Positions 15,001 through 21,000 of a stretch of DNA of 64,000 nucleotides are shown in pieces. The position numbers are program-made. How positions within the stretch are numbered: position 1 is the stretch's first letter; each line of letters starts with the position of its first letter. The stretch comes from Cyanobacteriota bacterium (GTDB lineage: Bacteria > Cyanobacteriota > Cyanobacteriia > Thermostichales > Thermostichaceae). The DNA is taken from positions 1 through 64,000 of the forward strand of contig JANRIL010000045.1 of NCBI GenBank assembly GCA_033764955.1, given 5' to 3'.

Positions 15001-18000
15001 TGCCCCGTGAAGTGCAGCCAGTTTCTTGCTTATACGGTGGCTGCAGTCGCGCATGAACCGCTTCTCTCTGCCTGACGTAGTTCCCTATACCCTTTAGCTT
15101 TGCTGACAAGGGCTGGTTGTCCATTCTTTTCCTGAAGAGAGCCTTGAATTGAGGGATCCCGAACCCTTGACAGGGCTTGTAGGATAGGCGTAGTATGTTT
15201 TGTAGTTCAACAAAGACAGCAAAAGGAGGTGCTGAGATGGTGCATATCCGCTTTGAAGGCCGCTCTTATGACCTACCCGAAAGCCGTCTCAACCTAACAG
15301 CATCCATGCCGGATAGGGAGATCAAACAATGCTTAGCTCGGCATCTGGATGTCAGCCAAGAACGCTTGCAATATTATGTCATTGACCGTCGTCCCAATGG
15401 CAGCCTGATTATCCGACCCGAAGCGGTTTATGGGTGAATGGGGTTTCTCAATGCCGTTTCGTGATGACCCATTCGTCAAGGGCTGACAACGTCTCGCGTC
15501 CCAACTAAAAAAGCTTACATACTAGCTCAGCGGTTAGAGCACTTTCCTCAAGAGAAAGGTGTCGTAGGTTCAAATCCTACATATGACCAACAGCTTTTTT
15601 GACTTGCGTGAGGCTCATTTTTCTGGGTAAAGGGCTGCGCCCTAACTTCCAGAGCCTACATACTCTCCCAAACAAGGTGCGCCTATGGAGGTAGGTGCTG
15701 CAAGCCTGAACCTAAATAGCAGGCGTAGATAGGGGGATCCCCCTCTAACTCTACATGGCTCTGGTTACTAGCGCGGCTCTGCATACCCGTCATGATCCTC
15801 ACTCATCTCAAGCCAATTCCAACAACGGCATCCGATGTCAGAGAAAGATCGTTGGATCCATCCTTCGATAGCGGGTAGCGATCCAACCATGATGAGGAGG
15901 TGAAAACATGTTCGATACTTATGATCAAGAAGCTCCCACCCAAACGGTGGTCAGCAGCAAAACCCTTTTAAGTTTGGGCTGGCAGCCCCTCTATCGCCAA
16001 CTGGACTGGCTTTATTTGCAGCGCTTGATCACCCAAGATCCGGGGGAGTTTTGGCGGCACACGCTGGATGTGTGCGGAGAAGTTGCCAGCACCCTGGGGC
16101 GAACTGAATATACCTGGTGGGCAAACTGGCTGGGGGTGATCTCCGGCTATACCCGTCAGGAAGTGGAGAAGTTTTGGGACTATATCACTCCTGCTCCTAC
16201 GGAACCCAACTGGCGGCAACCCACCCTCACCACCCTTACCCCCGTTACTTATCCGGTGAGCCGTCAAGGGATCCCCATTCACGCTCTCTTGCATCGTTTG
16301 CAGGAGCTAACCGTGTTGAAGGTTTTAGAGTGGCTGGGGCCTCCTGACCGGATTACTCAACTGTTTCAGGGGCGATATTACTATCTGCCGCTGGATCGCT
16401 TTCGTCAATGGCATCAGTTGCAGGCGGATGGCACCATTTGGGGCTATTGGCAGGCTGCTGACATCTGGTTACAAATTACCCCCTATGGATCCCGACAGCG
16501 CAGCTACACCCTGATCGGGTCGGATCTCGATCCCTGGATCCGCAAAGCTACCCATAATTTAGCGGTGATGGTGAGTGGTTATCAAAGCCGGATTGGGCAG
16601 GTGCAGAGTTTGCACCCCCTCCGCAGTTTCCCCGCCGAGATTCAGGCTTTTTCGGATGTTGTGCAGGAGCGAGTCTGGCAACAGTCGCAGCTAGCGATTT
16701 TGGTGCATGGGGATCCCGGAACGGGCAAAACCGCCTGGACTCAAGCCATCGCCAAAGAGATCTTGGTGCCACTGGGGTATGTGATCTTTATTTTGGATCA
16801 TGATGCCGTTGAGAATTTTGTTCCTCCCAGCTATCTCAGCCGGATCGGTCTAATTATCAATGAAGCCGATAATTTGGCACAAAACCGCGCTCAAACGGCG
16901 GGATTTAACCACACCAAAACGGAACATGTTTTGAGCCTTTTGGATGGCACCCTTCATCAAAGTGTGTTGGATGAATCCCAGGATCAGCAAGCCCCTCGTT
17001 TGGTGGTGTTGCTAACCTGCAATACCCTGGAGCGGATGGATCCCGCCGTTTTGCGAAAAGGCCGGATTGATTGTCTCTATGAGTTTCGGCATCGGTTTGT
17101 TTAGCCACGGATGGAGAGCTGTGAGTTTCTCCATTTCTCCTCCTATTCGATTGATCAATTTTGATTGGTCAATTTTTAGATAGGTTGATCATTTTCTGGA
17201 TGATATTTTGTTTTTTAGGGTGCAGACCAGGAGGTTTTGATGCCTATTCTGATGAATGGGGTTGAGCAGGACTTGCGTCTGGAAATGCTCAACAGCTTGT
17301 TAACGACTCCCCACCGCCAATTAAACCTGGTGGCGGAACTCCACCAAACCACTCTGGAATTGGATCCGTTGTTTTATGGGCACTTAGCGGTTTGGTATCA
17401 GCGGAACGGGGATGTGCGGGATCACAAAGAGGTGTTTGTCGGTAACCTCTTAACCAGTGAGTTACTGGAACACCGCCATGCCGGATTTGTCCTGCTGCAA
17501 GAATTCCCCCCCTATCAGGTGGCTCGTATTCTGGACTTTATGAAGCAGCAAAAAGGCAAAGTCCCTCGCTCCGCTCGCACGGCAATCCGCCATTATCTCC
17601 AGCAGCGAGAAGCGGATCCCAAGCAGTTTGATCGGGCGGCTTTGCGGGCACGGCAGGCTCTCAAGCACCTCTATGCTGCGTTGCACATCAAACCCAGCCC
17701 CCGCGCCAACGCTATTTTGTTTGCGGAGCAGCCCCCGCAGGGATCCCTGGCGGCTGTCATGCAGCAGTTGAGCCAAACCACTAGCCCAGAACAGCAGGCT
17801 CGTCTGATTGTGGAATTCAACATCCCCTATACGGTGGCTATTGGAGCCATTCGCCAACTGACTCCGGTGGTATTGGTGGCCTTGATCCATAGCATGTCCC
17901 CGCAGGAGGTGATCAACACCCTCAAGTCTCTGCAGGCAAGAGGAGCCATGGATCACCCTGAGGTGAAAAAGCTGATCGATCAAAAGTTGGCTGAGGCAAC

Positions 18001-21000
18001 AAAAAGTGGACGGGTATCTGCCTTTAAGGCTCGGGTGGCGGCGGATGCTACTGAGTTGGACGAAGCAACGGCGGCTCGTTTGCAGCAAATTACCGATAGC
18101 CAAGTCAAACAAAAGGGGCGCATCCGCAAGTCAACGGCCTTGTTAGTGGATAAATCGGGATCCATGGAGAGTGCCATCGAAATTGGTAAACGCCTAGCGG
18201 CTATGATTTCCGGAATCACGGAAGCCAAGCTGTGGGTCTATGCCTTTGACACGATGCCCTATCTGATTGAAGCTAAGGGCAAAACCCTCGGCGATTGGGA
18301 ACGAGCGTTTGCGTCCATCAAAGCAGCAGGGGGAACCAGCATCGGGTGCGCTCTAGAAGCCATGCGAATTCGTCAGCAGACGGTGGAACAAATCCTGTTG
18401 GTGACGGACGAAGGAGAAAACCATCCCCCTTACTTTGCTCAGGTCTACAACGCCTACAAACGGGATCGCCAGGTGGATCCGAATGTGGTGATTGTGCGGG
18501 TGGGTCATGCCAGTGACTACATCGAGCGGACGCTGCGGCAGGAGCAGGTGATGGTGGAGAGTTTTACCTTCGCGGGTGACTACTACGCCTTGCCTAACCT
18601 GATCCCCCTCTTAACCCGCCCTTCGCGGCTGGAGTTATTGCTCGAAATCATGGATACCCCCCTACCCAAGCGGGATCCCTGAGGGGCTGGCTTTCCTGCC
18701 AGTTTCGCCGAGGATGACTCAATCAATCTGCCTAGGGATCCCCACCGAGCGGGGATCCCTTTTATTCAATTTACTCACATTTGCTCAACGCAAGGAAGTT
18801 TTTTAGGGCTAGGTGTAAGGTTATTATCGTTCACTAAGTCAGATAAAAACCCTTCACAAATGATTATTCTACGAAATGTTGACCATGCAGACACTGCAGA
18901 GCGATATTTTACTTGTGGACAAATAAAGGCTTTGCTAAGTTAGATATCAGGTATCTTGCCATTGAATCATATGTTAGCTGACTTCTCCCTCAGATTATGA
19001 GAATACTTTGAAAGGGCTTGGCACTCTAATTAGCGGTAAGGTTGTCTGATAGTGCAGCATAAGGTCTCGAACAATGGGAAAAATGTTTACTACAGCAAAA
19101 TTGCTGATATTTATGATCAAACTCGCTGGCTGACAGAACAAGTCGCTGAGGAAGTTGCAGATTTTATTCTTACTCTAGTCAAGGCAACTCCTGAAACCAC
19201 TTTTTTGGAACCTGGTATAGGAACTGGGTTAAACGTTCTTCCTTTAGTAAGACGTGGCTATTGTGTGACTGGCATTGATGTTTCTCAGGAAATGCTTAAC
19301 CAGTTTTGTCAAAAGCTGCCTGAAATTCCCCCGAATCTGAAACTGATTCATGGTGATGCCTCACAACTACCTTTTGCAGACACCAGCTTTGACGTTGTGC
19401 TAACTGTTCATATGCTTCATACTGTTTCCAACTTAGGAACATTTTTAGATGAAATCGATCGTGTCCTAAAACCAAAAGGTTTCTATCTTAATGCTCAATG
19501 GATTACCCCACCCTCACGACTAGAATTTGAGCAGTATTTCAAAACTATCTTATCTAAGTATCAAGAGCCACAACCTTCACAACAGCCAGGTAAAGTAATT
19601 AACGAAATTAATGTAGAGAAGTACTTACGTAATAAGGGGTATCAGTGTAATTATTTGATAGCTAAGGAATGGACGGTCAGCAACCAGGTTCAGGAATTAC
19701 TCAGTTTCTACAGGTCACGGGCATACGGGTTGTGTTGGCTCGTTCCAGATGAAGCGTTTCATCTGGCAATGGAAGAGTTGGAAGTATTTTGTCATGACTA
19801 TTATGGTTCATTGGAGGTGGAGTTATCATCCCAGGCACGATTTGAAATATGGGCATACACCGCAAGCTAACACTTCACGGCAGCGGACGGTCGAAAGTCG
19901 CTTATACTGTGTTCGAGGTTATCTACCGCCGCTACGTTATGCCGTTAGGCAGAAATATGAAAATCACTGAAGTTCGCCAACAGAGCTGGCACACCCTAAT
20001 TTGTAATTACTACGTTTGCTCCTCATGTAGTGTTGTGGATCGTGATTCATCGCGCATGACAATTGGCACTCCTTGCAAGAAGTGCAGTGCACCAAGCCCT
20101 TCTGCTCGCTTATATTTCGGAGTAGAACTTTGCCAGCTTGTGAATTCTATTCAGGATCTATATTTTATTCGTAGCGGAAAAATCACGCACGAGGATGAGG
20201 ACTTCGGAACACAGAAGTATGACATGGAATCCGATATGCGCCCGATATCTGCCATATTATTCTGCACTATTTTTGATGTCCTGATGACAGGGCTAATCAA
20301 AAATATAATGCTTCGAAAAAGCATCCCACAGGAAATTCAAGATTTGTTACTCAAGAACTACCAGTTTGCGATGAAAAAACGCGATCAGCTTTATCCAAAA
20401 CTTCTGAAGGAATCATTCCTCGAATCGATAAAAACAATTAAGGTGGAGACGACACACGATTTCGAGCCTCATTTCGATTATGCGGATAAACTAGCTAAAA
20501 AAAGAAATAAATTTGTTCACAAAGGTGTAAAATGGGTCTTCACGGAAGACGAACTTGACAACATTCCGCATGAATTGCACCCACTGTTTAGCGGTTTTGT
20601 TGCCCTACATAATTATCAAAATGATAAAATCTAATGAGCCAAACAAATGGATGGAACAACCAGGGATCAGCATGACCTAGTAGCAAGATAAGATGGAATA
20701 GCCTTGCTTCGAGCAATCGCATGAGAAGAGTGTATTTAAACACCAGTGCTTACAACCGTCCGTTTGATGATCAAACTCAACCCAGGATTTTTCTTGAAAC
20801 CCAGGCTGTGATTATCATTTTGCAGATGGTTGAAGTAAAGACAGTTGAGTTGTTCAGTTCCTCGGTTTTAGAATATGAGAACAGCCATAATCCCTATCTC
20901 ATCAAACAGGAGACAATGAGTTGATATCTCCAGTTAGCCGAATTAAGGTAAGAAGTTGATGAAGCAATCCGTCAGAGAGCCGAGGAATTAGAACAAAATG

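Follow-up and report, generated by a model that had tools for sequence, protein, structure and literature searches.

A false tRNA gene in a cyanobacterium belongs to a family of small RNAs linked to a divergent Ro60 and carrying tRNA and ribosomal look-alikes

Results

The window, i.e. the whole 64,000-nucleotide stretch of cyanobacterial contig JANRIL010000045.1 that was analysed, holds on its forward strand an operon in which the gene of a 66-aa ubiquitin-like protein with a C-terminal Gly (Ubl; g01995, 15237..15437) is followed by two small RNAs (RNA 1, 15491..15614; RNA 2, 15631..15780), an AAA ATPase (g01997, 15908..17104; Pfam AAA, E 6e-11) and a divergent Ro60 (g01998, 17240..18682). 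The order Ubl, RNA, AAA, Ro-like is the one given in the genome-wide survey's note. A promoter is predicted upstream from sequence, with a -35 box TTGACA at 15167-15172 and a -10 box TAGTAT at 15191-15196 (element 15167..15208, + strand), and is overlapped by two direct repeats (15189-15196 and 15201-15208, + strand) matching the TrcR-type pattern given in the parts of PMC10272220 and PMC8421152 examined. Such tandem boxes occur just twice in the genome, the other pair preceding an RHH gene on contig C38, and at the window promoter the tandem operator covers the -10 box and start site, as in the TrcR regulon. By analogy with that regulon, we infer that TrcR would bind here and repress the window operon, and that inhibitors of translation would induce it. 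A TrcR-type box lies immediately 5' of the Ubl gene in only about 10 loci, because most operons begin further upstream.

RNA 1 contains the tRNA-Leu(CAA) that had been called at 15515-15588, a call that ARAGORN reproduced. It is closed by two long helices, P1 (15491-15499/15606-15614) and P2 (15506-15515/15592-15601), separated by an internal loop, CCCAAC/ACUU, and accompanied by a UACAUAC element, and within them a tRNA-like module (15523-15580) displays D, anticodon and T arms in that order. The survey's claim of two closing helices was borne out by folding (z -3.15, 0/200 shuffles), and RNA 1 scores 115 bits with our model of the family (R1). The accompanying description as an intact cloverleaf did not stand: the acceptor remnant in the window consists of four pairs and one mismatch, and two-sided changes were found at just one of its five pairs. 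A genuine tRNA-Leu(CAA) was rejected, as RNA 1 is without a 7-bp acceptor (4 of 5 pairs) and has a 5-nt variable loop instead of a long arm, and as anticodons across the family are not consistently usable; a separate 83-nt Leu-CAA tRNA is encoded on contig C4 of the same genome.

Covariation upheld the proposed structure, since 49 aligned sequences were 93.9% paired over 39 pairs, of which 26 had two-sided changes, a result reached by 0/500 shuffles and to be compared with slid controls 32-51% paired. The note had allowed that the invariance of the core motif might stem from the pattern used to collect the copies. This concern is dispelled by 61 loci collected through the protein, where ARAGORN places 101 calls in the interval from the Ubl to the Ro-like gene (four of the 61 had no call): 88 match the core strictly, ten carry core variants recognized by eye and three are ordinary tRNAs. 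Anticodon drift was likewise confirmed, an unusual anticodon (stop, A34, TAT, or a loop not of 7 nt) being found in 36 of 111 handle-borne calls vs 10 of the 315 remaining tRNA calls at these loci; a high share of Pyl calls was not (2/101). The only sign of expression came from a relative, contigs of which turned up in RNA libraries.

RNA 2, overlooked in the survey, carries the same terminal structure, located by descriptor search, on a non-tRNA cargo of two hairpins, with an extra hairpin in this genome. It folds with z -3.96 (0/200 shuffles), and its cargo class is conserved, a cargo profile matching 19 loci; the cargo itself matched nothing in Rfam or rRNA. The window RNAs have the size (about 80-150 nt), paired ends and internal loop of bacterial Y RNAs, and lie within 4 kb of the Ro60 ortholog on the same strand, RNA 1 being 1.6 kb upstream of the Ro-like gene.

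The Ro60 fold proposed for g01998, a helical ring joined to a vWA domain, was upheld with a better model (pLDDT 94.6). The top 12 Foldseek matches were all Ro60/TROVE (E 5e-11 to 5e-9), superposition on Deinococcus radiodurans Rsr (2nvo) gave a VIA Z of 21.0 with rmsd 4.2 over 436 residues, and in a PDB profile search the top five sequences were all Ro60, human Ro60 at E 2e-16. The MIDAS (DxSxS...T...D) is intact, D304, S306, S308 and D390 being invariant in 89/89 sequences. As the note had reported, Pfam misses TROVE in g01998, which yields vWA alone. R113 and K151 align with K141 and R178, respectively, two of the Yrl2-binding positions in phage phiLo Ro60 (PMC12135203, text examined), whose numbering involves an offset of 8 deduced from seven matching residues; R or K occupies these positions in 75/89 and 63/89 Ro-like sequences, respectively. 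The family comprises 403 clusters at E 1e-30.

The constant part of the RNA family, hereafter the handle, consists of two helices, a CCYRA/ACUU loop and UACAUAC. In 126 loci (87 cellular and 39 viral) gathered via the Ro-like protein rather than the RNA pattern, 348 handles were identified in 92 loci (79/87 cellular, 13/39 viral), with up to 12 copies per locus. Raw matches fell on the strand of the Ro gene in 348 of 350 cases, and a block-shuffled control gave three. The descriptor found no handle in 21 of the 97 loci in which the Ro-like gene is complete and its upstream DNA available, all 21 being viral; model R1 nonetheless gives full-length matches in many of these. Across 61 genomes R1 matches five, all among the six that are Ro-like-positive, and 0/55 of the others, the sixth positive genome carrying a class-2 handle RNA instead. 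Similarly, each of the 13 Ro-positive genomes in a set of 141 has two to nine handle motifs (56 in total), whereas the other 128 hold 15 altogether vs 14 for the reversed pattern, i.e. chance level. The commonest loop variants are CCCUAAC (137), CCCCAAC (45) and CCCUAAU (23), with their kin.

The known Ro60-recognition motifs GGUCCGA, GNCGAAN0-1G and CGAA are absent from the handle, an Rfam search of the window RNA returned no Y RNA family down to E 10, and the vertebrate-like helix of Yrn1-type RNAs, bulged on both strands, is not seen, the motif being different. Fold, synteny, genome co-occurrence and YrlA-type siblings nevertheless lend good support to a Y-like RNA next to a divergent Ro60. 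That much of the survey's "new class of Y RNA" survives; its topology is not new, because D-anticodon-T order has already been described for D. radiodurans Yrn1 in the examined text of PMC4201824, and the tRNA is one cargo of several.

The tRNA-only frame of the note indeed proved too narrow, since handles carry tRNA in Yrn1 order, tRNA in YrlA order, phage D-loop grafts, short hairpins and 23S rRNA mimics. The YrlA order (T-acceptor-D) closed by the handle occurs in 45 copies from 33 loci. When one such sibling was compared with Rfam YrlA, the tRNA-like part was matched (positions 24-84, 39.4 bits, E 2e-7, below the 69-bit cut-off) and the YrlA stem was not, which indicates that the handle occupies the place of YrlA's Ro-binding stem. 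RNA 1 itself was rejected as a YrlA (RF02553), having D-anticodon-T order and no YrlA match. Of the 29 handle grafts into the D-loop of phage tRNAs, 26 sit inside a 7-bp acceptor stem (control 25/630). These interrupted tRNAs, together with some acceptor-end copies having a 7-bp stem and encoded CCA, and operons often adjoining tRNA arrays, are what would be expected if the handle directed processing or behaved like an intron, its trimming or excision freeing spare tRNAs and other RNAs of long arrays. We regard that explanation as improbable, given that the D-loop linkers vary in length (5 to about 20 nt) and lack a constant junction, that 81 of 111 cellular copies have acceptors of at most 6 bp, that the 36 unusual anticodons among 111 are unusable, and that rRNA-like and short cargos would be useless as tRNA.

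Short hairpins bearing no mimic at all make up 46 copies. Another 18 carry the sarcin-ricin loop (SRL) with the GTPase centre, the exact 12-nt SRL being present in 18/18; this cargo matches Rfam LSU rRNA above the cut-off and Escherichia coli 23S rRNA at 79% over 77 nt (blastn, E 1e-8), and unites in one conserved RNA pieces lying 1,600 nt apart in rRNA. Helix 69/70 cargo is found in 23 copies (E 2e-7, and 2e-10 after circular permutation). No published description of rRNA cargo on such RNAs was found in the literature searched. Genes near Ro-like loci include Tpt1, RNA ligase, EF-Ts and L7/L12 paralogs and long tRNA arrays. Since the SRL and GTPase centre form the factor-binding site and L7/L12 and EF-Ts paralogs lie in these operons, the rRNA-like cargos might regulate by mimicry, as ribosomal-protein leaders do, or act as sponges titrating EF-G, EF-Tu, L11 or recycling factors, which would slow or restart translation without any tagging; EF-G is reportedly bound by such SRL/GTPase-centre fragments, going by the title of a reference listed in PMC7180214. 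The chances of this appear slim, because SRL/GTPase RNAs are found ahead of diverse genes or within tRNA arrays, not before one ribosomal-protein gene, and because anticodon drift would be left without explanation. Known VapC and MazF cut sites are anticodon loops, the SRL and 23S loop 70, and according to the same review, in the text examined, VapC20 leaves isolated SRL fragments uncut, which weakens a simple decoy reading (PMC7180214).

Up to 12 copies per locus and a patchy distribution (13/141 genomes) could also point to a mobile repeat or to decayed, functionless tRNA and rRNA pseudogenes. This is already largely refuted and scarcely credible in view of compensatory changes throughout, confinement to a single strand, the near-strict tie, in cells as in phages, to a single gene family, and the combination of distant rRNA pieces in one conserved RNA.

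Gene counts, taken over the 80 closest of 597 genome loci, which are kin, and over the 39 viral loci, place the Ubl gene in 57/80 and 28/39, a ThiF-type E1 in 41/80 and 29/39, and the AAA gene in 20/80 and 0/39. The AAA gene is accessory, and the conserved partners are Ubl, a Cys protein and E1, which accompany the Ro-like gene in cells and phages alike, JAB being added in phages. The operon membership proposed in the survey was correct for the AAA gene of the window and missed the E1 and Cys-protein genes that the operon usually also holds; in the window genome these lie on other contigs. Cellular Ubl copies end in Gly in 61/61 cases, without JAB, and eight of 28 viral ones extend beyond the Gly, seven of those eight with JAB. 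Structural matches of g01995 to Prok_Ub, Ufm1 and PB1 (TM 0.48-0.61, Atlas structure search) are below the Atlas naming threshold. The Cys protein has an invariant G-C-L; searched as a whole, it best matched OB folds (Z 7.3) over residues 82-171, with no match to an E2 (UBC fold).

Discussion

Judged from sequence, the false tRNA is a member of a small-RNA family of cyanobacteria and giant phages, linked near-strictly to a divergent Ro60, in which the handle, a conserved helix-loop-helix, travels with the Ro-like gene and is grafted at differing points onto translation mimics or short hairpins. Such a stem on look-alikes of tRNA and ribosomal centres suggests a bait or tether system for protein-synthesis stress. 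On balance, with modest confidence, we favour a translation-stress operon in which the divergent Ro60 acts with small RNAs whose common, predicted protein-binding handle displays baits. The outer helices of the Ro-like ring would hold the handle, in the way that Ro60 binds Y RNA, thereby displaying the cargo to proteins that recognize tRNA or rRNA centres (tRNA and rRNA nucleases, elongation factors, repair enzymes); the anticodon would drift because the cargo is not a decoding tRNA. Another operon protein, e.g. the OB-fold Cys protein, could alternatively read the handle. Ubl, E1 and the Cys protein may tag the captured factor or some part of the RNP, and TrcR would free the operon once translation is blocked.

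A more specific version, RNA-programmed Ubl tagging, is conceivable yet doubtful: Ro60 would present a library of bait RNAs, and an E1/Cys relay would place Ubl on whichever nuclease or factor engages, protecting cells from toxins that target translation and helping giant phages to withstand abortive defences of the host. The baits in that case copy sites of attack, i.e. drifting anticodon loops, the SRL with the GTPase centre, and helix 69/70. Less probable, in our estimation, is that these are ordinary Y-like RNAs whose handle is bound by Ro60 and whose tRNA or rRNA fold serves just to shield the RNA or to tether a ribonuclease or a repair enzyme (cf. RYPER), the Ubl cassette being co-regulated but separate. 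The architecture is that of Yrn1 and YrlA, tRNA-fold protection has been proposed (PMC4201824, text examined), YrlA-type siblings exist, Tpt1 and RNA ligase are neighbours and the Ubl partners are scattered in the window genome; protection, however, requires neither an exact SRL in 18/18 copies nor a kept helix 69/70, and, in cells as in phages, Ubl, Cys protein and E1 stay linked to the Ro-like gene.

Bacterial Y RNAs are established tRNA mimics, with no consensus on what their mimic domain does. In the present family a single stem bears tRNA in three topologies and, in miniature, two of the functional centres of 23S rRNA, and as the handle is constant and the cargo naturally swapped, the role of the mimic domain becomes directly testable, cargo by cargo. 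The results further extend Ro60 to a large family missed by Pfam, would connect it to a ubiquitin-like cascade and the TrcR stress response, and explain why annotations of cyanobacteria and phages contain false tRNA calls, stop-codon tRNAs included, and stray pieces of 23S rRNA.

Comparison with known systems

The Bil and Bub pathways are of the prokaryotic Ubl-E1-E2-JAB kind. Operons of this kind in PMC1779556 share with ours a small Gly-ended protein, a ThiF E1, a JAB peptidase and a partner with an invariant Cys; vWA or TROVE is not mentioned in the parts examined. The Cys protein differs in its OB-like domains without an E2 match, and the cassette in its link to an RNP. The TrcR regulon and L-type tRNA arrays of cyanobacteria resemble our loci in the operator over the -10 box and in tRNA-array and RNA-repair surroundings, Rsr, Y RNA, TROVE, ubiquitin and tRNA-like RNAs going unmentioned in the examined text of PMC10272220 and PMC8421152. 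The Ro60 of Thermus phage phiLo, with Yrl1 and Yrl2, is similarly phage-encoded, with upstream stem-bulge-stem RNAs and aligned basic residues, but its RNAs have a CGAA motif and recruit PNPase; neither tRNA/rRNA cargo nor a Ubl system appears in the text of PMC12135203 examined.

The nearest parallel to RNA 1 is D. radiodurans Yrn1 with Rsr, in which, according to the examined parts of PMC4201824, a Ro stem replaces the acceptor stem, D, anticodon and T arms follow in tRNA order, and several RNAs per locus are encoded beside the Ro60 gene. RNA 1 shares that order on its putative Ro stem and differs in its full D arm, 7-nt loop, stem motif and Ubl cassette. The Ro-like family has 12-16% structural identity to Rsr and is missed by Pfam TROVE, and the Rsr loci of Calothrix and Rivularia in Table S1 of PMC4201824 (six genus names checked) encode 533-534 aa, not this 477-aa family. 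In comparison with YrlA (RF02553; PMC4201824, in part), the handle takes the place of the GNCGAAN0-1G stem and RNA 1 has another order. The likeness to YrlA lies in the T-acceptor-D order of the 45 sibling RNAs.

Burroughs and Aravind in 2016 are said to have described ROT/TROVE and Band-7 RNA-repair scaffolds with tRNA-like RNAs, which may partly cover the Ro-like family. Such scaffolds, as summarized in part of a citing text (PMC7824862), likewise combine a Ro-like scaffold with a tRNA-like partner amid RNA-repair genes, jumbo phages included.

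The operon and its first RNA

The operon lies on the forward strand and comprises a 66-aa ORF coding for a ubiquitin-like protein (Ubl, g01995, 15237-15437), an ARAGORN-called 'tRNA-Leu(CAA)' (15515-15588), an AAA ATPase (g01997, 15908-17104) and a 480-aa vWA protein (Ro-like, g01998, 17240-18682), coordinates that agree with the gene order given in the genome-wide survey's note. The claim that the tRNA call is not genuine is likewise sustained: two helices enclose the tRNA-like part of the molecule (RNA 1, 15491-15614), whose fold beats 200 of 200 shuffles. Because its acceptor remnant consists of four pairs and one mismatch, its variable loop is short and a normal Leu-CAA of 83 nt is present elsewhere in the genome, RNA 1 is not a working Leu tRNA. 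Rfam listed no Y RNA family for RNA 1 down to E 10, and nothing except tRNA over the window.

Directly upstream of the operon promoter, the segment 14278-14852 (forward strand) holds an RHH antitoxin-like gene (the profile scan covered the antitoxin), followed by a reading frame that is presumably PemK/MazF-like, with an apparent frameshift near 14700. Downstream of the operon, an ORF at 19960-20634 (forward strand) gives a weak HEPN (RiboL-PSP) match (E 4e-4).

A divergent Ro60 family

Judged by predicted structure and sequence profile, the g01998 family is Ro60, in line with the divergent Ro60 identity proposed earlier. A model built from 89 sequences reached a pLDDT of 94.6, its first 12 Foldseek matches were all Ro60/TROVE structures, and it superposed on Deinococcus radiodurans Rsr with Z 21.0 over 436 residues; similarly, five Ro60 sequences ranked first when the sequence profile was compared with the PDB. 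The MIDAS is invariant in the family, and the conserved R113 and K151 align, under an inferred numbering offset, to K141 and R178 of the phage phiLo Ro60, described in PMC12135203 as residues affecting RNA binding. The family comprises 403 clusters at E 1e-30 and differs from the cyanobacterial Rsr loci of 533 aa listed in PMC4201824 Table S1. A predicted complex of the Ro-like protein with the Ubl scored 0.00, which counts neither for nor against their pairing.

The RNA family in loci collected by protein

Proteins served to gather the loci (80 from genomes, the best of 597 hits, with 38 viral loci and eight others), which meets the worry that the invariance of the RNA core came from the pattern search: among 101 ARAGORN calls between the Ubl and Ro-like genes of 61 loci, 88 carried the strict core, 10 a variant recognised by eye and three were ordinary tRNAs. 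The alignment of RNA 1-type molecules included 49 of 64 non-redundant copies, the other 15 having a long variable arm, a longer acceptor or a cut 3' end. Its cells were paired in 93.9% of cases and two-sided changes occurred in 26 of 39 pairs, a result reached by 0 of 500 shuffles, with slid controls at 32-51%; the reported helix covariation is thus reproduced. The acceptor remnant is kept by sequence and not by covariation (two-sided change in one of its five pairs).

Anticodon drift was also confirmed, unusual anticodons being found in 36 of 111 handle-borne calls vs 10 of 315 other tRNAs of the same loci. The frequent Pyl calls did not recur (2/101), and a Ro stem bearing the arms in D-anticodon-T order, presented as a novelty, is already described for the D. 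radiodurans Y RNA Yrn1 in PMC4201824. A short hairpin repeat element breaks up the T-loop of several tRNA-like cargos (L029:8562, L029:8794, L042:416, L072:7201, L073:7307 and L087:6468).

A portable handle and its cargos

On sequence grounds, the constant part of the RNA family is the handle, a stem that carries a variable RNA module, the cargo. A stem-only descriptor (helix, CCYRA/ACUU loop, helix, UACAUAC) recovered 348 distinct handles; they come from 92 of the 126 loci and almost all share the strand of the Ro gene. Shuffled loci gave 3. Cellular cargos were counted as ARAGORN-callable tRNA (111), T-arm-only (71), short hairpin (37), two rRNA-like classes named for helix 69 (23) and for the sarcin-ricin loop (SRL, 18), class 2 (eight) and other (23); 46 handle copies carry short hairpins only. 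The order known from YrlA was seen in 45 copies (41 cellular, four viral) from 33 loci, and one tested copy aligned to Rfam YrlA in its tRNA-like part but not in its stem. Viral loci were missed when viral contigs were scanned with a single protein and came to light in an alignment scan. In phages, 29 handles occur as hairpins, 26 of them set into the D-loop of a tRNA whose acceptor has 7 bp (control 25/630). One stem is thus grafted at any of three sites: acceptor end, anticodon end or D-loop.

The 595-kb phage LR756511 (L007) encodes twelve handle RNAs with Ubl, Ro-like, Cys protein, JAB, E1 and a tRNA array, and in its RNA at 10795-10931 there is a tRNA-Thr that has an acceptor of 7 bp and an encoded CCA. 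Another phage tRNA array includes two group I introns (L094:3938-4136 and 4941-5128).

Cargos resembling 23S rRNA

Over 77 nt the SRL class matches the 23S rRNA of E. coli at 79% (E 1e-8), all listed matches being 23S, and its place there is the L11/GTPase centre, at about 1039-1112 of the E. coli 23S record. It exceeds the Rfam LSU cut-off in two of the scanned loci, an exact 12-nt sarcin-ricin loop opens the cargo in 18 of 18 copies, its helices covary (14/41 pairs) and its profile matches in 26 loci. A second class, with profile matches in 29 loci, corresponds to helix 69/70 of 23S; when its 3' tail is set before its 5' head the match extends to 1889-1937 (E 2e-10), which makes the class a circular permutation with its opening near the helix-69 loop. 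The helices are named according to 23S numbering. The genome has no assembled rRNA, and therefore the rRNA of a relative and of E. coli served as reference. Neither class has a copy in the window's own genome. When viral contigs were scanned for a combined handle-SRL pattern, the single match was judged a chance occurrence inside unrelated sequence, and one further phage match (L097) is weak and partial, so that rRNA cargo is not established in phages.

The only convincing handles in the genome are RNA 1 and RNA 2 (15631-15780, forward strand, fold z -3.96), the latter carrying a third cargo class seen in 19 loci. Comparison of this cargo with Rfam and with the rRNAs of E. coli and of cyanobacteria gave no match, and a suspected likeness to the SRP Alu domain was unsupported.

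Arrays of 20-32 tRNA genes stand immediately before the operon in eight loci (L008, L022, L025, L046, L064, L077, L082, L085), and SRL/GTPase-centre RNAs often lie inside these adjoining arrays.

Protein partners

The conserved cassette consists of Ubl (57/80 genome and 28/39 viral loci), Cys protein (45/80 and 31/39) and ThiF E1 (41/80 and 29/39), joined in phages, and there only, by JAB (26 viral loci); the AAA ATPase (20/80 and 0/39) is accessory. All 61 of 61 cellular Ubls end in Gly, and phage Ubls extending past it mostly adjoin JAB. In the Cys protein a G-C-L is invariant and the domains are OB-like; it gave no match to an E2 fold. In the window's genome the Cys/OB protein (G000:C42:81021-81863) and the E1 (G000:C47:125528-126187) are on other contigs than the operon, each alone among housekeeping genes.

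Many loci (L010-L087) recurrently include L7/L12 and EF-Ts paralogs, Tpt1, RNA ligase, GNAT, DUF6847, DUF924 and three further families (clusters c9, c12 and c15); several have a second, shorter Ro-like-related ORF upstream of the Ro-like gene.

Promoter, expression and distribution

The predicted operon promoter has a tandem TrcR-type box over the -10 element, the motif being that given in PMC10272220 and PMC8421152. The genome has just one further box of this kind, in front of a 116-aa RHH gene (G000:C38:12191-12590), whose tandem operator resembles the published trcR promoter motif and which is probably the trcR ortholog. Expression was seen as contigs of a relative only: contigs span the Microcoleus operon (L085) in four RNA libraries of four studies, with no silent control, and high depth over its SRL/GTPase RNA may be rRNA cross-mapping.

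The search model for RNA 1-type molecules matches five of 61 genomes, all five among the six with the Ro-like gene. Across 141 genomes of the phylum, 13 of 13 with the gene have 2-9 handle motif matches, kin not being independent (six of the 13 belong to one genus); the 128 without it have 15 in total, about the reversed-pattern control (14). The family, described as widespread, is so only in being scattered over many families and is not common, its Ro-like gene being patchy (13/141). Culturable carriers among L008-L088 include Microcoleus, Calothrix, Moorena and Kovacikia strains. Genomes with the labels Acidobacteriota, Armatimonadota, Actinomycetota and Clostridia hold the operon too, at 66-70% identity (L021, L040, L045, L046, L049, L059, L074; MAG labels as given).

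A proposed mechanism and its relation to known systems

Structure, modularity, linkage and folds are observed. Beyond them, we infer that the Ro-like ring most likely binds the handle and would display mimics of the sites used to attack or drive translation. According to PMC7180214, nucleases are known to target anticodon loops, the SRL and loop 70; the drifting anticodon would reflect release from decoding and possibly bait diversification, and a Ubl relay may add tags, the least supported step of the proposal. Counting against the bait view are the absence of the known Ro60-recognition motifs from the handle, the copies bearing hairpins alone, the restriction of expression evidence to a relative's contigs, and the finding, also in PMC7180214, that at least one such nuclease does not cut the isolated SRL.

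We found no description of handle RNAs with rRNA cargo, or of the whole system, in the open-access literature searched. The system probably works like a Ro60-Y RNA system, although sequence tests do not place the handle RNAs with the known bacterial Y RNAs YrlA and Yrn1, and it is noteworthy for its portable handle, its mimics of rRNA centres and its Ubl link.
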